This document shows, one piece after another, positions 4,961 to 62,484 of a stretch of 64,000 nt of DNA. The stretch is from Nannocystis bainbridge. GTDB taxonomy: Bacteria; Myxococcota_A; Polyangia; Nannocystales; Nannocystaceae. Below the pieces are notes generated by a model, which worked only from the letters and a program-made list of their open reading frames with translations, did no database searches and was not told the DNA's origin. Where the stretch lies: assembly GCF_028368995.1 (NCBI RefSeq), contig NZ_JAQNDL010000004.1, forward strand, positions 128,001 through 192,000, given 5' to 3'. Both the position numbers and the translations under genes were made by a program. Positions within the stretch are counted from its first letter, which is position 1, and each line of letters begins with the position of its first letter.

Positions 4961-5040
4961 TTCGGGACATGTCGTGGAGGACATGTCCTGAGGGCGAGGT
5001 GCTCGAGGACATGTCGCAGCGGACATGTCCTGAGGGACAG
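4961..5040. repeat. GGACATGTCC 14-bp-period tandem array (5 units) between convergent gene ends
   Basis: ggacatgtcgtgga|ggacatgtcctgag|(degenerate)|ggacatgtcgcagc|ggacatgtcctgag|ggacag; ACATGT cores at 4966, 4980, 5008 and 5022, i.e. multiples of 14. Confidence 0.85.
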
Positions 5041-8975: not shown

Positions 8976-9070
8976 GCTGTCCCTCGTGGCATGTCCGTGG
9001 GGGCATGTCCAAAGGGGCATGGGTTAAACGACATGTCGCCAGGGACAGGGCCCCGGCGACATGTCGTGGA
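8976..9070. repeat. GGCATGTCC/GACATGTCG tandem array (about 6 units) between convergent genes
   Basis: ccctcgtggcatgtccgtgggggcatgtccaaaggggcatgggttaaacgacatgtcgccagggacagggccccggcgacatgtcgtgg. Confidence 0.85.
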
Positions 9071-15772: not shown

Positions 15773-15900
15773 GTGTCCTCGCGGACATGTCCGGAGGGGC
15801 ATGTTTGCGGGGGCATGTTCGTTCGGGCATGTCTGTTCGGGCATGTCCGTGCGAGCATGTGAGACCACGCGCCGATCGGCTATGCTCGCGGGCATGTTCG
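15773..15900. repeat. GGCATGT(C/T) tandem array (about 7 units) between pmbA and the acetyltransferase
   Basis: gcggacatgtccggaggggcatgtttgcgggggcatgttcgttcgggcatgtctgttcgggcatgtccgtgcgagcatgtgagacc ... gggcatgttcgtg. Confidence 0.85.
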
Positions 15901-17340: not shown

Positions 17341-17460
17341 GGGCGTGTCCGCGAGGACATGAGGGGGAGGTGCGAAAGGACATGTCGTGGTGGACATGTC
17401 GTGATAGACATGTCGTGATGAACATGCCTGATAGGGCATGTCTGAGAAGACGTTCTCGTG
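17341..17460. repeat. GGACATGTCG tandem array (about 7 units, 14-bp period)
   Basis: aggacatgaggggg|aggtgcgaa|aggacatgtcgtggt|ggacatgtcgtgat|agacatgtcgtgat|gaacatgcctgat|agggcatgtctgag. Confidence 0.85.
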
Positions 17461-17475
17461 ACGATGCGTTCTGCG

Positions 17476-17800
17476 GCCGGGGGCGGGCGGCTTCACGGCT
17501 CGCCGAGACCGAGCCTGGCGGATTCTTCCGGGCAGGCGAAGCGGCGAAGGGGACGGCTTCACGACTCTCGGGGCCGGGCCTGGCTGAATCTTCGGCAGCT
17601 GAAGCGGGCGAAGCGGGCGGCTTCACGGCTCGGCGCCGGGCCTGGCGGGTTCGTCGGGCACGCGAAGCGGCTGACTTCACGGCTCGGTGGGGCCGGGCCT
17701 GGCGTTCTACGGCCGGGCGGAGCGGGCGACTTCACGGCTCGGCGGGGCTGGTCCTTGCGGGTTCGTCCGGGCAGGCGAAGCGGGCGAAGCGGCGGGTGAG
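17476..17800. repeat. degenerate 58-66 bp tandem direct repeat, 5 copies, spanning the 3' end of the sigma/anti-sigma gene and its downstream region
   Basis: Units begin cttcacggctcgg(c/t)g...ggccgggcctggcg...gcgaagcgggcga at about 17478, 17541, 17607, 17664 and 17722. Confidence 0.65.
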
Positions 17801-19033
17801 CACCGAGTCGGGCAGGCGGGCGGTCAGGCGGGCGGCGGCGGCGGCGGCGTCGGCCGGGCGGCCTTGCAGGCACAGCAGCTCGATCGCGGCGGCCTCGCGG
17901 GCGTCGACGAGGGCGCCGCGCGGGAACTCGCGGGCGTGGCTGTCGAGCAGCAGGGCGGCGGCGGTCGGGTCGCGGGCGTCGAGGCGAGCGCGGGCGCGGT
18001 CGAGCAGGCCGACCTCGCGGGCGAGGTCGTCGCGGGCCCGCGCGCGGGCGGCTGGCCCGGGGGACAGGTCGGATCCCGTGGCTGTCCCTGCGGACAGGTC
18101 TCGCGCGGCTGTCTCTGCGGACAGGTCTCGCGCGGCTATCTCTGCGGACAGGTTCGACGCTGCTGTCTCTTCGGACAGGTCGGAGGGCGCAGGGTCCTTC
18201 GCGGCGGGCTCGTGGGCACGGTCCTTCGCGTCTGTCTCGTGGGACAGGTCCGAGCGCGCCGGGGCGCCGCGGCCGGGGGCCTGGCGCGGGGCGGCGACGA
18301 CGACCGCGGCGGTCCCGGCGACCAGGAGGGTCGTCATCACCCCGGTGCGGGCGGCGGTCCAGGCGGCGGCGACGGTGGCGAGCTTGCCGTGGCCGAACAG
18401 CGGGACGATCGCGGCCCAGTTGCGCGGGGCGGCCTCGGGCGGGGGCTCGGCGCGGCGGCGGTCGGCGGCGATCTCGGCGACCAGCGGCTCGGGGCCGGCG
18501 GCCAGCTCGAGCAGGCGGGCGCGGGCCAGGCGGAGCCGCGAGTAGACGGTGTTGAGCGGCAGCTCGAGCTCGGCGGCGATCTCGGGGCCGTTCATGCCGA
18601 GCAGCTCGGTCATCTCCCACACCTCGCGGGCGCCGCGGGGCAGGCCGGCGAGCAGGCGCTCGACCTGGCGGGCGGCGTCGTGGCGCTCGTGCGGGGCCTC
18701 GCCGACGTGGCCGGTGAGGTCGCCGAGAGCGGCGATCCGGCGGGTGCGGCGGGCGACGCCGCGGTGCCAGTGCGAGGCGACGCGGCGGGTGACGCCGTAC
18801 AGCCAGGCGCGCGCGGACACCTGGTAGTGGACCTGCTCGAAGCGGCGGTAGGCGGTGAGGAAGACGTCCTGGATCACGTCGTCGCGGGCGGCCGCCGGGA
18901 CGCCGAAGTAGCGGGCGGCGGACCAGACGAAGTTGAACTCGCGGTCGTAGATGGCGCGGAAGCGCGCTTCGCGGTCGGTGGCGAGCAGCATGGGGCCGGA
19001 GGTGGTGTCCCCGGTCGAGATGGATTCCGTCAT
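17732..19033 (-). CDS. ECF sigma factor fused to a C-terminal TM segment and an anti-sigma-like periplasmic domain with 9-aa tandem repeats
   Basis: Sigma-70 region 2 (FRAIYDREFNFVWSAARYFG...DDVIQDVFLTAYRRF) and region 4 (EVWEMTELLGMNGPEIAAELELPLNTVYSRLRLAR), then TM TTLLVAGTAAVVVAAP, then (DLSAETAAR)n encoded by 27-bp repeats at 18050-18250, then a helical C-domain. Start ATG 19031-19033 with GGAGA 9 nt upstream. The Arg/Pro-rich N-terminal extension in the ORF track was rejected. Confidence 0.7.
   Translation of the reverse strand: MTESISTGDTTSGPMLLATDREARFRAIYDREFNFVWSAARYFGVPAAARDDVIQDVFLTAYRRFEQVHYQVSARAWLYGVTRRVASHWHRGVARRTRRIAALGDLTGHVGEAPHERHDAARQVERLLAGLPRGAREVWEMTELLGMNGPEIAAELELPLNTVYSRLRLARARLLELAAGPEPLVAEIAADRRRAEPPPEAAPRNWAAIVPLFGHGKLATVAAAWTAARTGVMTTLLVAGTAAVVVAAPRQAPGRGAPARSDLSHETDAKDRAHEPAAKDPAPSDLSEETAASNLSAEIAARDLSAETAARDLSAGTATGSDLSPGPAARARARDDLAREVGLLDRARARLDARDPTAAALLLDSHAREFPRGALVDAREAAAIELLCLQGRPADAAAAAARLTARLPDSVLTRRFARFACPDEPARTSPAEP
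18050..18250. repeat. 27-bp coding tandem repeat (ctgcggacaggtctcgcgcggctgtct)n inside the sigma/anti-sigma CDS; a CATG-less variant of the GGACATGTCC family
   Basis: About 6 copies, each holding GGACAGGTC and its inverted partner GCTGTC. It translates on the minus strand to S/DLSAETAAR repeats. Confidence 0.75.
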
Positions 19034-26101: not shown

Positions 26102-27217
<1,116 letters not shown>

Positions 27218-27288
27218 GGTGCTGCCCCGTTCCCATAGCCAACTTCGGCCGCCGCGGGAAGGGCCGCGCCGTGCTACACCCCGGGGCG

Positions 27289-28407
27289 ATGCGCTCCGAG
27301 AGGGAACCCGGAAGCAAACCGCGTCGCGGCGCGGCGCATTTCGCGCCAGTCGCGCTGGCGTCCTGCCTGGCCCTGGTGGCCCCCGCGTGCGCGGCTCGCA
27401 ACAAGGGCGCCGCGCCGACCGGCCATAACTCGTTCGGGCAGGGCACGCGCTACATCCAAAAGGCGGTCCGCAGCAGCAGCGAGGGCGTGATCATCCTGCC
27501 CTCGAAGCGCGCGGAGAACCTGTTCGACCTGGCGCGCCTCAACGAGATCGCCCAGGCCCTGCGGCCGCCCGCCGCGGCGTGCTTCGTCAACCGGGCGATC
27601 GACACGATGAAGCGAGGCAAGCGCGACGGCGAGGACGCGTACGTCGACGTGCCCGAGGGCCAGGTCAAGATCCGCACGCGGCTGTCGCCCGACGGCGAGG
27701 TGCTGCGCACGGAGGTGCTCGACACCGGCTTCAAGGACCCGGAGATCGAGCCGTGCATCATGGAGGCGATCCAGGCCCGCAAGTGGATCAAGAACCGCAG
27801 CGGGGTGGTGCAGTACCTCGACGTGATCTACTGGGTGAGCCTCGGCGACGGCTCGGAGGACAAGTCGCCGGAGGCGAAGGCGGAGCTGCGCCGGCAACAG
27901 GCGATGGTGGCGATCCGCGGCAAGGGCTGCCTCGAGCGCCGCGTCGGCGCCGGGACGTACCCGGTCGAGGGCCTCAACCTGGTCGACCGCGACGGCAATA
28001 CGCTGGTCAGCCGCGTCGAGCCGAGCTCGCTGCCGCAGAAGGTCCAGGACTGCCTGTCGGTGGTGCTGCGCGAGATCCAGATGCCGCGCGCGCCAGGCTC
28101 GTTCGTGCGCCCGATCTCGCCGCAGGTCGAGTACACGGTGGCGACCGACGGCACGGTGTCGTTCGCCGACGAGCGCTGGATTAATTTGATTCTGATGGAA
28201 GAGAAGGCGGCCCGCGAGGACCGCCTGGCAGAGGTCGACCGCGGGCTCGGGATCGCGGAGCCGAAGCCGGAGCCGACGATCGAGACCACCGAGCCGCCGG
28301 CCGGTGAGGAGCCGGCGAGCGAGCCGGAGACGCCGGCGCAGGACCCAGGGCAGGGCGGGATCAAGCTCAAGCTCGGCGGGCACCGGCGCGCTGGTTCGCC
28401 GCGCTGA
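27289..28407 (+). CDS. hypothetical secreted protein
   Basis: Signal [39 protein letters not shown] at 27289 lies 71 bp from the divergent gcvT start. Confidence 0.55.
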
Positions 28408-28432
28408 GCGGGGCCGCGAGCGGGTGGCGCTC

Positions 28433-28500
28433 GGGACATGTCGTGGCGGGCATGTCCGATGCGGCATGTTCGAGTGGACATGTTCGATGGGACATGGCCT
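28433..28500. repeat. GGACATGT(C/T) tandem array (5 units) abutting the left inverted-repeat arm
   Basis: gggacatgtcgtggcgggcatgtccgatgcggcatgttcgagtggacatgttcgatgggacatgg. Confidence 0.85.
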
Positions 28501-28532
28501 GGACTGCGGGTGCGCGGCGACGGGTGCCCGTC

Positions 28533-28880
28533 GAGGAAATCGCGCGGCCGAGGACGCGGGGCCTGGAGAGCTGGGTGACGGCGGGCACGGCCTGTCCAGG
28601 AAATCGTGCGGCCGAGGACGCGGGGCCTGGAGAGCTGGGTGACGGCGGGCACGGAGCGGCGGAGCGGGTCCCTCGCCACGGCGGGGCCCTCCCAGGCAAC
28701 GTGCTCGGCGCCCTCGGGCTTCGATGGTGTTCTGTCTCTTGAGACAGGTGTGTGTGCTTCGCGGACGATGGCGCCTGCGCGCGGTTGCCTGCGGCCCCTC
28801 CCGCCTGCGTCCCACTCCGCCGCTCCGTGCCCGCCTGAGGAGAGCGTCGCCGGCCCCGCTTGTCGCCCCGCGAGTTCGTT
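28533..28880. repeat. left arm of a long imperfect inverted repeat; contains 2 tandem 57-bp sub-repeats
   Basis: gaaatcgcgcggccgaggacgcggggcctggagagctgggtgacggcgggcacggcctgtccag occurs twice. The reverse complement of 28790-28880 matches 29715-29800 with only a few mismatches. Confidence 0.75.
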
Positions 28881-28918
28881 GCAACGCATGGCGCGGGTAG
28901 CCGCCGTTCCACCCGGCG

Positions 28919-29612
28919 ATGATGACCGCGCGGCTCCTGGACGCGTACTCGCAGGGCGTGTTCTCGTCGTGGAAGAGCGAGCCGCGGGTCGACTTCATAG
29001 CCGTGACGGCGCGCCAGCGATCGGCCCACCGTACGATCGACGACTTTCGCCGCCGGCACCTGGCAGTCCTCGGCGGTCTCTTCGGACAGGTGCTCGAGCC
29101 AGGCCAGCGCGCCGGGCCGGTGAGGCTCGGACACGTCGCGCTCGACGGACGAAGATCAAGCGAACGCCTCGAAGCACAGGCGATTTAGCTGCGCGCGGAT
29201 GAAGGAGGTCGAGCCGGAGCTCGCGGCCAAAGGCCGGCGCGCTGGTTTGCCGAGGCCGACGACATCGATCGCCGCGAGGACGACCGGCACGCTGATGCTC
29301 GCGGCGACGAGATACCGGCATGGGTGCAGAGCAAGCAGGAGCGCCTGGCGAAGAGCCACGCGGCGATGGCGGCCCTCGAGGCCGAGGCTGCCGCCGAAGC
29401 CGCTGGCCGTGAAAAGGACCGGCGCGCCGCCGAGGAGTCCAGGGCGCGCGACGAGGCGCGGCCGATGCCCACGGGTCGAGACCTCGTCACATAGCCGATG
29501 GGACACCTTCCGAAAGTCGCAGCGCAACTTCGCCGATCCTGAGAGCAAGCTGATGATGACTACGGACGGCTTCGTACAGGGCTACGACGCCCAGGCCGTG
29601 CCTCACAGATGA
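28919..29612 (+). mobile_element. IS1182/IS5-like transposase remnant (frameshifted, truncated) between the inverted-repeat arms
   Basis: SSWKSEPRVDFIAVTARQRSAHRTIDDFRRRHLAVLGGLFGQVLEPGQRAGPVRLGHVALDG resembles the transposase N-domain (YSSRKLE...DFRKRHL...LF.QVL...LGHVALDG). A second frame has DPESKLMMTTDGFVQGYDAQAV, matching the block that opens the DDE domain (DP-x-A/S-R/K-L-M...GF.QGYNAQ). Total coding capacity is well under half a transposase. Confidence 0.45.
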
Positions 29613-29714
29613 TTATCGCCGAGATGGTGATCCGCGAGCAGAACGACTTCCAGGTGCTCACAACCTGCGAAAGAGAGTGTCCACAGTCGGTCGAGCCGCA
29701 CTCGCCGCTGCTCG

Positions 29715-30160
29715 GTGAGGCTCCCCGCGCGGCGACGAGCGGGGCCGGCGACGCTCTCCGCAGGCGGGCTCGGAGCGGCGGAGTGGGACGCAGGCGGGAG
29801 GGGCCGCAGGCGACCGCGCGCAGGCGCCATCGTCCGCCAAACACACCCACCTGTCTCAAGAGACAGAACACCATCGAAGCCCGAGGGCGCCGAGCACGTT
29901 GCCTGGGAGGGCCCCGCCGTGGCGAGGGACCCGCTCCGCTGCTCCGTGCTCGCCGTCACCCAGCTCTCCAGGCCCCGCGCCTTCGGTTGCGCGATTTCCT
30001 GGACAGGCCGTGCTCGCCTCTCCAGGCCCCGCGTCCTCGGTTGCGCGATTTCCTGGACAGGCCGTGCCCGCCGTCACCCCGCGTCCTCGGTTGCGCGATT
30101 TCCTGGACAGGCCGTGCCCGCCGTCACCCAGCTCTCCAGGCCCCGCGTCTTCGGACGCAT
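29715..30160. repeat. right arm of the long inverted repeat; contains 3 tandem 57-bp sub-repeats (gtcctcggttgcgcgatttcctggacaggccgtgcccgccgtcacc)
   Basis: Reverse-complementary to the left arm across about 350 bp, including ...cggagcggcggagtgggacgcaggcgggaggggccgcagg... The arm ends 14 bp before the stop of the flanking gene. Confidence 0.75.
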
Positions 30161-30173
30161 TTATCACAGGCTC

Positions 30174-30770
30174 CTACGCCGTCTCGGCGAGCGCGGGCTC
30201 GAGGTCCACGTCCGTCGTCTCCATGATGCGGGCGAGGGTCATGTAGAGGCCGATGGTCACCAGCAGCTCGAGGACCTCCCGCGCGGTGAACCGCTGGACC
30301 ATGGCGGCGAAGGTGAGATCCGTGGCTCGCACGTCGCGCAGCACCTCGGTGGTGAATCGCAGCACCAGCTGCTCGCTCTCGTCGAAGCATGGGACCTCGA
30401 ATTCGCCGCGCTCGAGCGCTTCGATCTGCTCGCGCGCGACGCCGGCATCGAGGGCGATCTGCACGTGGTGGGCCCACACGTAGCGCGCCGGCGACAGCCG
30501 GGCGACGCGGAGGATCGCCAGCTCGCGCAAGCGGGCGTCGAGCACCTGCTGGACGAGCACCGCGTCGCCGAGGGCGACGAGCGGGCCGAACAGGGTCGGC
30601 GCGTGGGCCACGATGCCGAAGATGTTGAGCCGCCCGGACAGACCCGCGAACACCTGGCGAACGACCTCGGGCGCAGTCTCGGGATCGACGTACGGGAGGC
30701 GGGCCATCTCCCAGCGATATCCATGGCGCGAGTACAGCGTCAAGCCACGGGCTGCGCCAGCGTCCGACAT
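30174..30770 (-). CDS. carboxymuconolactone decarboxylase (AhpD-like) family protein
   Basis: CMD-domain helical bundle with the conserved W-A-H-H-x-x-x-A-x-x-x-G motif (YVWAHHVQIALDAG). Confidence 0.75.
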   Translation of the reverse strand: MSDAGAARGLTLYSRHGYRWEMARLPYVDPETAPEVVRQVFAGLSGRLNIFGIVAHAPTLFGPLVALGDAVLVQQVLDARLRELAILRVARLSPARYVWAHHVQIALDAGVAREQIEALERGEFEVPCFDESEQLVLRFTTEVLRDVRATDLTFAAMVQRFTAREVLELLVTIGLYMTLARIMETTDVDLEPALAETA

Positions 30771-30916
30771 GGACCTTCGATGCGCTGACTGTGTTCCTCT
30801 GGCCGCAGAGGGGTTTTCGCAAGGCGGGCCCGGAGCTCCGGATCACGGCCTGGCCTGAGCCGCGGGCTTTCGCAGGGGCGGCATTTCGCTGCGAGCGTTG
30901 CGGCGCGTGCTGCCCG

Positions 30917-32006: not shown

Positions 32007-32070
32007 GTGTCCTCGAGGACATGTCTCCGGGAGCATGTCCTCGAACCCATGTCCCCGGGGACATGCCCCG
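32007..32070. repeat. GGACATGTC tandem array (about 5 units) between pcm and nadE
   Basis: tcgaggacatgtctccgggagcatgtcctcgaacccatgtccccggggacatgccccgggggcc. Confidence 0.85.
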
Positions 32071-32080
32071 GGGGCCAGGC

Positions 32081-34057
32081 TCACTTGCCGCCGACCGCGG
32101 CCTCGAGCTCGGCGAGCTCGTGGGAGAAGCCGCCCGAGAGGATCGGGAAGCGGCACCCCGTCTTCGGGTCGAGGTTCTGGTCGTCGAGGTGGAAGCTCGG
32201 GGCGTAGCGCTCGCGCTTCCACTGGTTCTGGCTCCACAGGCGGAAGAACCGCTTGACCCACAGGAGTAGCTGGGCGCGGCCGTGCTCGGGGTAGCGGCTG
32301 GCGAGGACGCGGAAGACGTCCTTGGGCGTGAGCTTGTCGCGGATGGCGGCGCGCTCGATGACGTCGAGGATCGGGTACGGCATCAGGTCGTCCTCGTCGG
32401 TCTGATGGGCGCTGGCGGGCCGCAGCTCGGCGGTCGGGGCCTGGACGTTGACGGCGCTCAGCTCGGGGGTAGGGCCGACGCCGGCGGGGCCTTCGAGCTC
32501 GACCCACCGCAGCCACTGGCGCAGGAAGGCCTTGTCGATGCCGGCGATCGGCGACAGGCCGCCGCAGGTGTCGCCGTCCATGGTGGCGTAGCCGACGGCG
32601 GCCTCGCTGCGGTTGCTGGTGGCCAGCAGGAGGGCGCCGCGCAGGTTGGCCAGCAGCCACACGCCGGGGGCGCGGGCGCGGGCCTGGATGTTCTGCAGGG
32701 CGATGTCGTCGCCCTTCCAGCCGAGCTCGCGGCCGATCGCGCCCTCGACCGTGCGCACGTAGGCGCGCACGAGCGGGTCGACGTCGAACTCGAGGAACTC
32801 GGCGCCGACGGCCCCGGCGACGGCGCGGGCGGCGTTGCGCGTGGTGTCGGAGCTGTTGTGCGTCGACTGATAGACGCAGGTGAGCAGCGAGCCCACGATC
32901 GCCCGCGTGGTGGTGCAGGTGCCCTCGGCCAGGCCGAGGCGGGCGCAGGTGGCCTCGACGCCGAGCTCCTGCACGGCGAGGGTGACCATGAGGTGCACGA
33001 GGTAGGCGACGGCGGCCGAGTCGGCGCCGCCGCTGAGCGAGACGACGAAGCCGCGCGACCGGCTCTTGCGCAGGTAGTCGAACAGGCCGAGAGCGACGGC
33101 CCGCGAGAACTCCTCGCGCTTGTCGCCGGGCCACGGCGGGGTCGGCAGCGGCTGGTGCGGCGGCAGGTCGGCGACCGGCAGCTGCATCTCGAAGCGGGTG
33201 ATCCGGCGCAGGTGGTCGTCGACGGTCGGGGCGGCGGTCCGGCTGGCGTGGATCATGCGCGCGAGGTCGACGTCGATCACGGCGCTGGTGAGGTAGACGT
33301 CGTCGTAACCGAGCCGCGGGCCCTCGGCGATGAGGTGGCCGGAGGCGGCGATCATGCACTCGCCGTCGTAGATGACGCGGCCGGCCTCGTTGCCGATGAA
33401 GTTGGAGTAGACGTAGGTGGCGCCGAAGCTGCGCGAGGCGCCGATGACGATCTGCTTGCGCACCTCGTGCTTGCCGAACGCGAAGTGGCTGGCGCTCGGG
33501 TTGCAGATGACGTCGACGCCCTGGGCGGCGAGCTCGACGCCGGGGCGGTTCGGGACCCACGCGTCCTCGCAGATCTCGAAGCCGATCCGCAGGCCGCCGA
33601 CCTCGAAGATCTGGTCGCCCAGCGGGTAGCTGTGGCCGTCGTGCTCCCACTGCACGAACTTGCCGGCCGGCCAGCCCTTGAACCACCGCGGCTCGTAATG
33701 GATGCCGTCACCGGCGAGGAAGCGCTTGCCGACCAGGCCGACGATCTGGCCGTCGGCGACCAGGCAGACGGCGTTGTAGTTGGCGGCGCGGTGCATGATC
33801 GGGACGCCGAGGGCGACGATCATGCCCTTCGTCTCGGGCAGCAGCTCTTGCAAGATCCGCCACGATTCGAGCACGGTGCCGCGGCTGAAGAACGCGTCCT
33901 CGCAGCCGTAGCCGGGGATGCAGAGCTCGGGCAGGCACAGCACGGCGACGCCCTGCTGGCGGGCCAGGCGGATCGCCTCGAGGATCCGGGCCTGGTTGCC
34001 GTCCCAGTCGAGCGGCGTCTGGTTGAGGGCGGCGGCGGCGACGCGGACGAGGTGCAT
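32081..34057 (-). CDS. nadE: glutamine-dependent NAD+ synthetase (nitrilase-like domain plus NadE domain)
   Basis: N-terminal CN-hydrolase domain (LCLPELCIPGYGCED, catalytic E/K/C) and C-terminal SGGADS P-loop (VSLSGGADSAAV). Confidence 0.9.
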   Translation of the reverse strand: MHLVRVAAAALNQTPLDWDGNQARILEAIRLARQQGVAVLCLPELCIPGYGCEDAFFSRGTVLESWRILQELLPETKGMIVALGVPIMHRAANYNAVCLVADGQIVGLVGKRFLAGDGIHYEPRWFKGWPAGKFVQWEHDGHSYPLGDQIFEVGGLRIGFEICEDAWVPNRPGVELAAQGVDVICNPSASHFAFGKHEVRKQIVIGASRSFGATYVYSNFIGNEAGRVIYDGECMIAASGHLIAEGPRLGYDDVYLTSAVIDVDLARMIHASRTAAPTVDDHLRRITRFEMQLPVADLPPHQPLPTPPWPGDKREEFSRAVALGLFDYLRKSRSRGFVVSLSGGADSAAVAYLVHLMVTLAVQELGVEATCARLGLAEGTCTTTRAIVGSLLTCVYQSTHNSSDTTRNAARAVAGAVGAEFLEFDVDPLVRAYVRTVEGAIGRELGWKGDDIALQNIQARARAPGVWLLANLRGALLLATSNRSEAAVGYATMDGDTCGGLSPIAGIDKAFLRQWLRWVELEGPAGVGPTPELSAVNVQAPTAELRPASAHQTDEDDLMPYPILDVIERAAIRDKLTPKDVFRVLASRYPEHGRAQLLLWVKRFFRLWSQNQWKRERYAPSFHLDDQNLDPKTGCRFPILSGGFSHELAELEAAVGGK

Positions 34058-34059
34058 TC

Positions 34060-34079
34060 AATGTCTCCGGGGACAGGGT

Positions 34080-34098
<19 letters not shown>
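34060..34098. repeat. GTCTCC/GGACATGTCC repeat pair between prs-like and nadE
   Basis: aatgtctccggggacagggtctaaaggacatgtcctgtg. Confidence 0.75.
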
Positions 34099-35023
<925 letters not shown>

Positions 35024-35027
<4 letters not shown>

Positions 35028-36892
35028 GCGGGGGAGGAAGAGTACCCCTCGGCGAGCGCGTTGGCGACCTCGGTATAGGCGTAATCGCTGACGCGTTCGT
35101 CGATGCGCATGCGCAGCAGCGCCTTGCTGCGGCAGGCGGCGGCGAAGAAGAACGCGCGATCGTCGGCGCAGGCGCGCGCGAGCGCGGGGACGGCGGCCCA
35201 GCGATCGAACAGGCGCTGGCAGATCCGCCGCACGCACGGCCACAGCTCGGCCTGGTCGGGCCCGCCGGCGTCTTCGATCCAGGCGATGACGGCGGCGAGG
35301 TGGGCGTGCACGAGGGTGTGGAGCAGCTTGCCCTGGGCCTCGGCGAGGTCGGCGGTGAGGGTGAAGGAGTCGGAGGCGAGCGCGGGTGCGTGACCGGCGG
35401 CGGCGAGCCGGCCGCGGTGGAGCCGGATGCCGCCGAGGTCGCGCACGATGAAGCCGCAGGGGCGGCCGGCGTGGACGAGCAGGGTGTTCTGCAGGTGGGC
35501 CTCGAGGGCGACGCCGTGGGCGGTCAAGAGGCGCAGGGCCGGCGGGACGAGGACTTCGAGGTAGTCGCTGAAGAAAGCGGCGAGGCGGGCGCGCAGGTCG
35601 CCGGGGTAGTCGGCGGCGAGCTCGCGCACGAGGAGGTCGCCGCCGGGGCGGCGCTCGCCGAGCGCGGCGCAGACGAGGAGCTGCGGGCTGCGCGAGGGGA
35701 CATGTCCGTGAGGGAAGGTCCTCGGGGACATGTCGTCGGGGGCATGTCCGGAGGGGAATGTCTCAAGGGACATGTCGGCGGGGCGGGACGGAGCGAGGCG
35801 CGGGTCGGCTGTCGCGAGGGACAGGTCGGCGTGGAGGTCGCGGGCGAGGGCGGCGGGGTCGGGGCGCAGCACGACGCCGAGCTGGCCGGCGCGGTCGCCG
35901 TGGCGCGGGTGCATGCCGGCGGCGGCCACGTCGGCCTGGATCCGCAGGCCGCGGCGCGTCTCGGGATCGGCGGCCTGGATCGCGGCCAGCAGGGCGGCGA
36001 TCGGCGGGCCGTTGTGGACCGAGGCGGGCGAGACCTGGCGGCGCGCGCTGGTGGTGTGGATGTCGACGGCGAGCTTGAGGTGCAGGGCCGGGGCGGCGAG
36101 GGCGACGGTGCGCAGGCTCAGGAGGGCGCGGGCGGGCAGCGGGGGCAGGTCGACGGGGTGGGCGACGCTGCGCCACAGCGGGCCGAGCAGGCGCGGCAGG
36201 CGGCGCAGCTGGAGGGCGTGCACGGGCAGGCGGACCAGGCCGGCGGGCGCGGGCGGGAACAGCTCGCGGGCGAGGTCGGCGTAGAGGTCGGGCGCGGCGA
36301 GCTGGGCGTGGTCGGCGGCGAGGTCGACGGCGTGCACGGGGGCCTGGGCCAGCAAGTCGGGGCCGTGGCGCAGGTTCTCCCAGGCGCGCAGGCCGAGCCG
36401 GGTCTTGCTCATCGGGTGCCAGGGGTGACCGTCGACGACGAGGTTCTCGGGGTCGAGCGGGGCGGGCCACGCCTGGCCTTCGGAGCATGTCCGATGGCGC
36501 AGGTCGGCGACGAGGCGGGCGAGGGCGAGGTTCCAGCGGCTGTCGTCGAGCTCGCGGGCGAGCCGGGCGCGGGGGGCCGGGGCGAGCGCGGGTAAGAGGC
36601 GCGGGAGGAGCTGGGGGAGGTCGGGCAGGTCGCTGGCTTCGAGGTCGGGGGCGTGGAGCTCAAAGGCGCGGCGGCGTCGCAGCGGGAGACTCAAGGAACA
36701 TGTGCGAAGGGACATGTCCTGAAGGTCAAAGGCGAGGAGCCGCTCGCGGGCGCAGGCGAGGAGCAGGCGGGCGCCGATGGCCTGGGTGGCGGCGCGCCAG
36801 TGACAGGCGAGGTCGGCGGGCTCGGGCCGGACGCGGAAGGCGAGGGGGAGGGCCCGGGCGGCGAAGGCGAAGAAGCGGTCGCGCTCGGGCAC
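35024..36892 (-). CDS. IucA/IucC-family (NRPS-independent siderophore synthetase-like) protein with FhuF-like C-terminal domain; carries in-frame GGACATGTCC repeat insertions
   Basis: [28 protein letters not shown] (S-x-R-T/R ATP loop) and [10 protein letters not shown] (H-x-Q-N) resemble NIS-synthetase motifs. The repeat arrays at 35696-35830 and 36692-36725 lie inside the reading frame (peptides [27 protein letters not shown] and DMSLRTCS). The true start is uncertain. Confidence 0.45.
35696..35830. repeat. GGACATGTC tandem array (about 7 units) lying in-frame inside the IucA/IucC-like CDS
   Basis: gggacatgtccgtgagggaaggtcctcggggacatgtcgtcgggggcatgtccggaggggaatgtctcaagggacatgtcggcgggg...gggacaggtcggc. 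Confidence 0.85.
36692..36725. repeat. GAACATGTG/GGACATGTCC repeat pair within the 5' region of the same ORF
   Basis: aggaacatgtgcgaagggacatgtcctgaaggtc. Confidence 0.7.
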
Positions 36893-52464: not shown

Positions 52465-52541
52465 CTGTCCGTTCGGGCATGCGCGAACAGACAGGTCCTC
52501 CGGGACATGCCCCATGCGGCATGTCCCCGGGGGCATGTCAG
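52465..52541. repeat. GGGCATGC/GGACATGCCC/GGCATGTCC tandem array between convergent genes
   Basis: ctgtccgttcgggcatgcgcgaacagacaggtcctccgggacatgccccatgcggcatgtccccgggggcatgtcag. Confidence 0.85.
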
Positions 52542-55751: not shown

Positions 55752-55808
55752 AGGGACATGTCCCCCGGGACCTGCCCTCAAGGGCATGGCTCCGGGGACA
55801 TGTCCGAT
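55752..55808. repeat. GGGACATGTCCCCCGGGAC / GGGGACATGTCC array overlapping the 3' end of the methyltransferase CDS
   Basis: agggacatgtcccccgggacctgccctcaagggcatggctccggggacatgtccgat. Confidence 0.85.
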
Positions 55809-62349: not shown

Positions 62350-62468
62350 GGCTTCGAGGATATGTCCCGAGGGACAGGTCATCGCAGGTCGATTGGCTTC
62401 AAGGTCATGCCCTGAGAGACATGTCCGTGCGGCGCGAATCGCGTAATGACATGTCTTGAGGGACATGT
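62350..62468. repeat. GATATGTCC/GGGACAGGTCA/GAGACATGTCC/TGACATGTCT/GGGACATGTCC array (about 6 units) between the SDR and the propeller lipoprotein genes
   Basis: gatatgtcccgagggacaggtcatcgcaggtcgattggcttcaaggtcatgccctgagagacatgtccgtgcggcgcgaatcgcgtaatgacatgtcttgagggacatgtccttcag. Confidence 0.85.
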
Positions 62469-62484
62469 CCTTCAGGGCTAGCCG

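Follow-up and report, generated by a model that had tools for sequence, protein, structure and literature searches.

Positions 28496–30173 of the 64-kb window analysed here (the whole stretch of Nannocystis bainbridge DNA, in whose numbering all positions are given) hold two long inverted arms around a degraded centre. Judged from its sequence, this element is very probably a decayed, immobile copy of an insertion sequence (IS) of the IS1182 family, the intact members of its clade being ~2.08 kb long with terminal inverted repeats (TIRs) of ~290 bp. It is assigned to the family by its transposase and its termini and is novel only in the very long structured TIRs of the clade. The window locus itself is ordinary, and the long-armed clade is a modest curiosity.

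Intact relatives of the element are found in Nannocystis pusilla. The IS1182 transposase P0104 of N. pusilla (459 aa) is encoded twice in one assembly, at loci L003 and L004, which share 2,087 bp at 99.86% identity between unrelated flanks; the shared stretch is therefore a mobile unit. The intact N. pusilla element (GCA_020073745.1, JAIRAU010000056.1, positions 33233–35308) measures 2,076 bp, and its TIRs of 295 nt are 95% identical to each other. P0104 scores 355 bits against the 270-bit cut-off of the NCBIfam profile NF033551 (IS1182 family transposase). The arms in the window are 91–93% identical to the N. pusilla TIRs and the centre is 81.5% identical to the transposase gene, the matches running colinearly from tip to tip. 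Since the arms match the TIRs of an intact element and the whole is colinear with it, the long arms are the IS's own ends, and the opinion of an earlier note on this DNA that they are not IS termini has to be abandoned. The right arm starts directly after the transposase stop codon, in the window and in the intact IS alike.

TIRs of ~290 bp occur also on a metagenome contig (L038), and more distant versions are present in two further loci (L025 and L026). The mobility of this type of element is evident from the N. pusilla pair, from further copies in Nannocystis sp. SCPEA4 and from copies in metagenomes. The arms are thus carried by mobile copies in other genomes and are not unique to the locus, which the earlier note had named as the sign of a local inverted duplication.

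Two metagenome contigs from one sample (L011 and L023) represent other internal-deletion derivatives, with deletion endpoints that differ from those of the window copy; their arms are also better kept than the interior, the trend being weaker than in the window copy. A metagenome scan with an invariant 20-mer returned 19 loci, 17 of which are chance matches in coding sequence. The arm DNA had no match in a collection of 72,556 plasmids.

In strain SCPEA4 (GCA_026626685.1), an IS110-family element with a 323-aa transposase is present in both arms of an IS1182 copy (L024, 1–1371 and 2770–4140), at the same position ~89 nt from the tip, which yields inverted repeats of 1371 nt that are 99% identical. 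The doubling could be due either to site-specific double insertion or to gene conversion from arm to arm.

Transposase remnant, termini and tandem end units

The region between the arms was translated in three frames and corrected for frame changes to give a composite protein. The composite matches NF033551 (E=4e-31, 108 bits, profile positions 51–298 of 488) and is 73% identical to residues 57–317 of P0104 in BLASTP; owing to truncation of the gene, the score stays below the profile cut-off. The gene's 3' end has survived as well: tblastn aligns 29656–29718 with residues 440–459 (80% identity, E=6e-6), that is, the last 20 codons and the stop. The match of the composite to NF033551 identifies an IS1182-type transposase, as had been proposed from the reading frames, and the gene in the window is itself a pseudogene. 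Pfam gave no match either for the separate open reading frame (ORF) fragments or for the composite. A protein search with the remnant retrieved thousands of IS1182-family transposases, the best of which (P0104 among them) are 73–75% identical; the precomputed Pfam domains of these relatives are PF05598, PF01609 and PF13751 (DUF772, DDE_Tnp_1 and DDE_Tnp_1_6).

Six changes of reading frame interrupt the remnant, five of them internal and the sixth at deletion junction 2, and a TAG codon stands in frame at 28898–28900. Approximately 250 bp are missing at the first deletion (~IS nt 305–555), which covers the 5' untranslated region, the start codon and ~53 codons, and ~366 bp at the second (~IS nt 1358–1724), which covers most of the DDE domain. 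An 89-aa ORF at 28919–29188 on the plus strand, annotated in GenBank as a hypothetical protein (WP_272091289.1/MDC0722750.1), is a piece of this pseudogene; its cluster at 90% identity is a singleton. Annotation of the locus should accordingly read IS1182-family pseudogene or remnant, and not a new class of element.

Every intact relative retrieved starts with GAGC[CG][CT]G... and ends with ...C[AG][CG]GCTC, and every one examined has CTAG on both flanks, beyond which the sequences are unrelated. In the window, the right end reads ...CACAGGCTC up to 30173 on the plus strand, where CTAC follows. The last 13 nt (...TTTATCACAGGCTC) are a true IS terminus that agrees with the C[AG][CG]GCTC of all relatives, and tips of the form GCCTGTCCAGGAAATCG are found in both arms. 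The right boundary of the element, previously set at 30160, is this terminus at 30173. The element sits exactly at the stop codon of a carboxymuconolactone decarboxylase (CMD) family gene, the CTA after 30173 being that stop on the opposite strand. At the left, neither the true tip (GAGCCTG...) nor a CTAG flank is preserved, and a degenerate half unit at 28496 adjoins an array of the GGACATGTC type.

The conserved TIR of this IS1182 clade is GAGCCTGTCCAGGAAATCG, and a homologous tip, GAGC[CG][CT]GTCC.AGTAA, is present in elements of Methylobacterium, Roseomonas, Alicyclobacillus and Streptomyces. The CCTGGACAGG core of the repeat units, which had been connected with the dispersed GGACATGTC family, is this conserved terminal repeat; the CCTGTCCAGG core, too, is the conserved IS tip and no kin of the GGACATGTC arrays, and the same tip recurs in the elements of the four genera. 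At the right tip of the N. pusilla element (L004, 4640–4665), a small GC-rich hairpin with a T-run resembles a terminator reading out of the transposase gene. The scanned N. pusilla region contains two terminator-like sites, which is within one standard deviation (SD) of shuffled sequences (mean 1.1, SD 1.1).

Intact elements of this kind would transpose like other DDE elements of the IS1182/IS5 type, the transposase acting on the tips and inserting the element at CTAG, as expected from the family. The presumed transposase-binding tip would correspond to the outer ~20–30 nt of each arm. In the window copy, most of the DDE domain and the 5' part of the gene have been lost through two internal deletions, and what is left carries frameshifts and a stop codon.

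An inverted-repeat search of the window pairs 28580–28872 with 29726–30018 (293 nt, 95% complementary), and gapped blastn extends the pairing to 28526–28872 with 29726–30062 (347 nt, 91%). The high reverse complementarity of the arms is thus as first described, and the 58-nt example then quoted lies inside them. Tandem Repeats Finder (TRF) detects a period of 64 bp on the left (28496–28647) and periods of 54 and 50 bp on the right (29964–30129). According to unit dissection, the repeated unit is the outermost part of the IS, extending from the tip as far as the hairpin stem, and tandem copies are present at both ends. The right end holds four tips: beyond the native one there are three more, in units of 54, 50 and 61 nt. 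At the left end, the native unit is preceded by one of 64 nt and, outside that, by a partial one of 30 nt. A right-end (IRR-like) tip, GAGCCTGTGATAAATGCG, is carried by the outermost right unit, and tips of the left type (GCCTGTCCAGGAAATCG) by the other units. The tandem sub-repeats reported in the outer arms therefore exist, with measured lengths of 64 nt on the left and 54, 50 and 61 nt on the right in place of the single 57-bp unit.

The sub-repeats are confined to 28496–28589 and 30009–30173, the remaining ~290 nt of each arm being unique sequence homologous to the TIRs of the intact IS. No other copy of the element among those compared has them. All unit junctions (GGGCACG|GCCTGTCC) are identical in both arms, so that a single origin of the extra units followed by their spread between the arms is indicated. 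For the 50–64-bp sub-repeats, the best explanation is that slippage or unequal exchange multiplied the terminal unit in the window copy, after which the tandem tips would have passed from arm to arm.

Hairpin module of the long arms

Each long arm consists of a tip region of ~30 nt with the canonical IS1182-type tip and of an imperfect hairpin module of ~254 nt, designated H. The TIR is long because the module is mirrored at both ends. Each arm is itself a long hairpin with terminal stems of 25 nt.

Among elements with at least 67% transposase identity, the clade compared here, the module varies. One element (L032, 1645 bp) has no hairpin module and TIRs of 21 nt. Four loci (L034–L037, 1792 bp) have short tips and a hairpin of ~200 nt at the right end only, where it separates the transposase stop from the tip. 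The module is present at both ends in L026 (2108 bp, TIRs of ~250 nt), in L025 (TIRs of at least 230 nt, 93%; its length is cut by the contig end) and in the Nannocystis elements (2076 bp, TIRs of ~290 nt). L034 and L032 belong to the same sub-clade, with transposases 84% identical, and carry the ~200-nt hairpin (2605–2821) and a 46-nt hairpin with 21-nt TIRs (2651–2696), respectively. From this contrast it follows that the module can be gained or lost end by end. H could have been present first at one end only, or could have been lost from one end in some lineages.

Covariation was evaluated in an alignment of eleven arms from approximately five independent lineages. The consensus fold of H comprises 67 pairs. 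In this fold 92.6% of cells are paired, against 38–55% after a shift of the partners by one to three columns, and compensatory double changes affect 24 pairs, against 4–9 after the shift; none of 500 shuffles reached the observed values. Although the lineages in the count are few and the two arms of an element do not represent independent cases, the stems of H vary in sequence from lineage to lineage with their pairing preserved. A covariance model of H matches only IS ends in 155 kb of collected sequence, the whole window included.

From its conservation only, H appears to be an accessory structured module, its likely role being either to insulate or terminate transcription or to serve as a regulatory RNA or DNA hairpin. 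Insulation of the transposase gene from outside transcription, or termination at the ends, is the preferred reading. This reading has some points against it. Rfam gave no match for the window arms or for the intact IS, a strand-preference test of the hairpin (RNA versus DNA, and which strand) showed no clear preference, and a promoter scan found no promoter-like site. A broader account is proposed tentatively and may well prove wrong: the clade would have acquired a ~254-nt module selected for pairing as a functional nucleic-acid structure, with homogenisation from arm to arm and with the tandem tips of the window copy as a by-product. If this account is true, candidate roles of H include, besides insulation or termination against outside transcription and a regulatory RNA, a DNA hairpin taking part in transposition or target choice.

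Among prokaryotic DDE insertion sequences, TIRs of ~290 bp rank as very long. A single transposase clade here offers a natural series (no module, module at the right end only, module at both ends), which allows the role of a large structured end to be tested for a DDE IS, as well as the way in which very long TIRs arise and stay matched.

State of the window copy and alternative explanations

The present element encodes no transposase and lacks one end. No transposase of the long-armed clade from N. bainbridge is among the best protein matches to the remnant, and the cluster of the annotated 89-aa fragment has no other member, which suggests that the window copy is a lone fossil in N. bainbridge. 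Blastn of the element region against the window found no second copy of the arms.

The assignment to a decayed IS1182 copy has some points against it. At the window copy, loss of the left terminus leaves no target-site duplication to be demonstrated: CTAC forms the right flank, and on the left the flank is replaced by the half unit and the GGACATGTC array. CTAG itself is palindromic and may be either a duplication or part of the end. The element presumably arrived at exactly this site by transposition, as judged from the right end only. Two 20-mer scans of the genome collection gave no match and say little on copy number in the host, the first 20-mer lying in the apical loop, which is the only variable part of the arm, and the second being the window-specific form of the terminal unit. 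There is also a gap in conservation: the arms share 91–93% identity with those of N. pusilla and 95% with one another, the interior 81.5%, and a simple model of an old neutral fossil does not predict this gap. The gap could result from constraint on the arms, from arm-to-arm homogenisation or from a past as a derivative mobilised in trans.

The last possibility leads to the strongest of the alternatives, according to which the window copy is a non-autonomous deletion derivative, or mini-IS, mobilised in trans by a full-length copy still or until recently. Its arms would have been kept by selection for transposability while the interior drifted. The same gap speaks for this, and the metagenome contigs L011 and L023 are internal-deletion derivatives of which each short contig retains at least the one terminal arm shown. 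The window copy does have internal deletions, but its left terminus is not intact, and both the left tip and the flank are missing. Its deletion endpoints differ from the ones in L011 and L023 and thus give no sign of a common lineage; clustering at 90% identity leaves the annotated fragment as a singleton; and neither an intact clade transposase of N. bainbridge among the best matches nor a second copy within the window was found. This explanation is considered unlikely.

Much less probable still is the architecture favoured in the earlier note, a foldback-like element or a pair of oppositely oriented copies of a miniature inverted-repeat transposable element (MITE) that captured an IS1182 fragment or were split by it. 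The long hairpin of each arm with its terminal stems is MITE-like, the outer parts are tandemly repeated, and the loci with the hairpin module at one end only (L034–L037) indicate that it is separable over evolutionary time. However, the colinearity of arms and transposase gene extends to intact elements, whose 2,076 bp are mobile as a single unit and flanked by CTAG left and right. Moreover, each arm ends in the canonical IS tip, beyond the hairpin. The sub-repeats occupy the outermost units of 50–64 nt, in the window copy only, and are missing from all other copies compared. A foldback element was rejected since its arms should be mainly sub-repeats and not the ends of a transposase element, and the arms here are homologues of intact-IS TIRs. 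A MITE pair or composite was rejected as well: no free-standing arm was found with the covariance model in the 155 kb of collected sequence (the window and the other collected loci) or with blastn in the window, and the 72,556 plasmids gave no match.

A local inverted duplication (by template switching or palindrome formation) around a truncated IS fragment, which would have made the second arm, would fit the undemonstrated target-site duplication and the uniqueness of the arms within the window, but it is the least credible of all: both arms recur, at the same positions relative to the transposase gene, in metagenomes and in the intact copies of another species; the transposase stop is immediately followed by the right arm, just as it is in the intact IS; and the IRR-like tip of the outermost right unit differs from the left-type tip that a copy of the left arm would carry.

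Locus, surroundings and comparison with known systems

The decayed IS1182 copy lies between two convergent genes, as the earlier note stated, and its left arm adjoins the GGACATGTC-type array (28433–28496). Most likely the present element only supplies two large hairpins directly downstream of these genes. No effect on host physiology is expected, and the two hairpins behind the convergent genes are the only plausible source of one. The features of the locus are collected in the table.

Features of the IS1182-type element and its flanks in the window
Feature	Position	Strand	Basis or remark
Left flanking gene, 406-aa hypothetical protein	27187–28407	+	ORF; 100% identical to an N. bainbridge protein, which identifies the source organism; no Pfam match; outside the element
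GGACATGTC-type array, 14-bp period	28433–28495	.	TRF; genome-wide intergenic repeat, not IS
L0, degenerate 3' half of terminal unit, 30 nt	28496–28525	+	Unit dissection and boundary comparison
L1, extra tandem terminal unit, 64 nt, tip-like motif GCCCGTCGAGGAAATCG	28526–28589	+	TRF, unit dissection
Native left long TIR	28590–28880	+	92–93% identical to left TIR of intact N. pusilla IS
Native left tip GCCTGTCCAGGAAATCG	28590–28606	+	Unit dissection
Left hairpin module H	28619–28872	+	Covariance-model match, 210 bits
Deletion junction 1	28881–28888	+	Colinear alignment with intact IS
Transposase pseudogene, ~residues 54–317 of 459-aa N. pusilla protein	28889–29662	+	81.5% nucleotide identity to N. 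pusilla IS
Last 20 transposase codons and stop, joined by deletion junction 2	29656–29718	+	tblastn, residues 440–459
Native right long TIR (R3)	29726–30008	-	Inverted-repeat search, alignment, dissection
Right hairpin module H	29726–29979	-	Covariance-model match, 211 bits
IRL-type tip of native right TIR	29992–30008	-	Unit dissection
R2, extra tandem unit, 54 nt, tip GCCTGTCCAGGAAATCG, small internal deletion	30009–30062	-	TRF, dissection
R1, extra tandem unit, 50 nt, tip GCCTGTCCAGGAAATCG, small internal deletion	30063–30112	-	TRF, dissection
R0, outermost unit, 61 nt, true right terminus 5'-GAGCCTGTGATAAATGCG	30113–30173	-	Dissection; terminus comparison, GAGCCTG/CAGGCTC in all relatives
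Flank CTAC, one base off CTAG; CTA is the CMD-family gene stop (TAG on minus)	30174–30177	.	Sequence
Right flanking gene, carboxymuconolactone decarboxylase (CMD) family, 198 aa	30174–30770	-	Pfam PF02627, E=5.7e-10; outside the element

Motifs of the GGACATGTC type are dispersed over the whole window (119 matches with at most one mismatch versus 11.5 expected). Palindromic, intergenic arrays of the GGACATGTC(C) type with a 14-bp period are located at 4965–5035, 8988–9066, 15780–15860, 17378–17442 and 28433–28496, and further ones at 32008–32073, 35696–35783, 52490–52539, 55754–55805 and 62358–62470. The arrays are independent of the IS, because IS copies elsewhere have no arrays at their ends. 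Tandem repeats also stand right after a GGACATGTC array at 17483–17787 (62/55 bp) and 18080–18251 (27 bp), in a layout like that of the left side of the element; the 62/55-bp repeats have no similarity to the IS terminal unit above that of shuffled sequences.

In two N. pusilla loci (L001, 7090–9244; L002, 7144–10085), the interval from the orthologue of the 406-aa gene to pcm contains ArsR/HTH_20, AHSA1 and other genes. In N. bainbridge the same interval (window 28408–30916) holds the IS remnant and the CMD-family gene, and is thus a variable islet. The orthologous interval of N. pusilla yields no empty site, because it carries these other genes (ArsR-type, AHSA1).

No description of IS1182 elements with long TIRs, or of IS1182 in myxobacteria, was found in the searchable literature, which did not cover ISfinder, and the long-armed clade seems to be undescribed there. 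Ordinary members of the family are represented by ISMno38 of Methylobacterium nodulans (as annotated by NCBI) and by elements of Roseomonas, Alicyclobacillus and Streptomyces plasmids, with transposases 41–60% identical to those of the Nannocystis clade. Like the Nannocystis element, they have one DDE transposase gene matching NF033551, the tip GAGC[CG][CT]GTCC... at both ends and CTAG on both flanks. Unlike it, they have TIRs of 20–24 nt including CTAG, a length of 1466–1708 bp and only the tip, as a TIR of 16–24 nt, without the module; in the Streptomyces relative the inverted repeat is 47 nt at 79%. The measurements in ISMno38 and the plasmid-borne relatives agree with the earlier statement that the ends of ordinary IS1182 elements are short.

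IS1272 of staphylococci, another IS1182-family element, has inverted repeats of 16 bp and inserts into stem-loop targets, and some members of the family are reported to target palindromic sequences (PMC5678879, PMC4923244). The window element resembles IS1272 in belonging to the same family and in its tie to hairpins or palindromes, the CTAG flank here being a palindrome. IS1272, however, uses the hairpin as its target and takes its place on insertion, with no target duplication, whereas in the Nannocystis type large hairpins lie inside the tips and travel with the element. An origin of the long arms as duplications of a whole hairpin target, one of the stem-loop pathways of IS1272 (PMC5678879), was rejected, the canonical tips being outside the hairpins.

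Eukaryotic foldback elements share with the window element long inverted arms, outer tandem sub-repeats and a short or non-coding centre. Their arms, however, are largely made of sub-repeats and are not the ends of a bacterial DDE IS, whereas in the window the sub-repeats are limited to the outer 110–180 nt.

Long structured ends of 100–300 bp with several transposase-binding sites are characteristic of Tc1/mariner elements of the inverted repeat–direct repeat (IR-DR) type (Sleeping Beauty), of Tn7 and of Mu. With a tip motif that occurs two to four times per end, the window copy may be compared by analogy with such multiple binding sites. In contrast, the intact copies of the Nannocystis type have one tip per end, and their extra length is a single long hairpin and not a series of spaced repeats.

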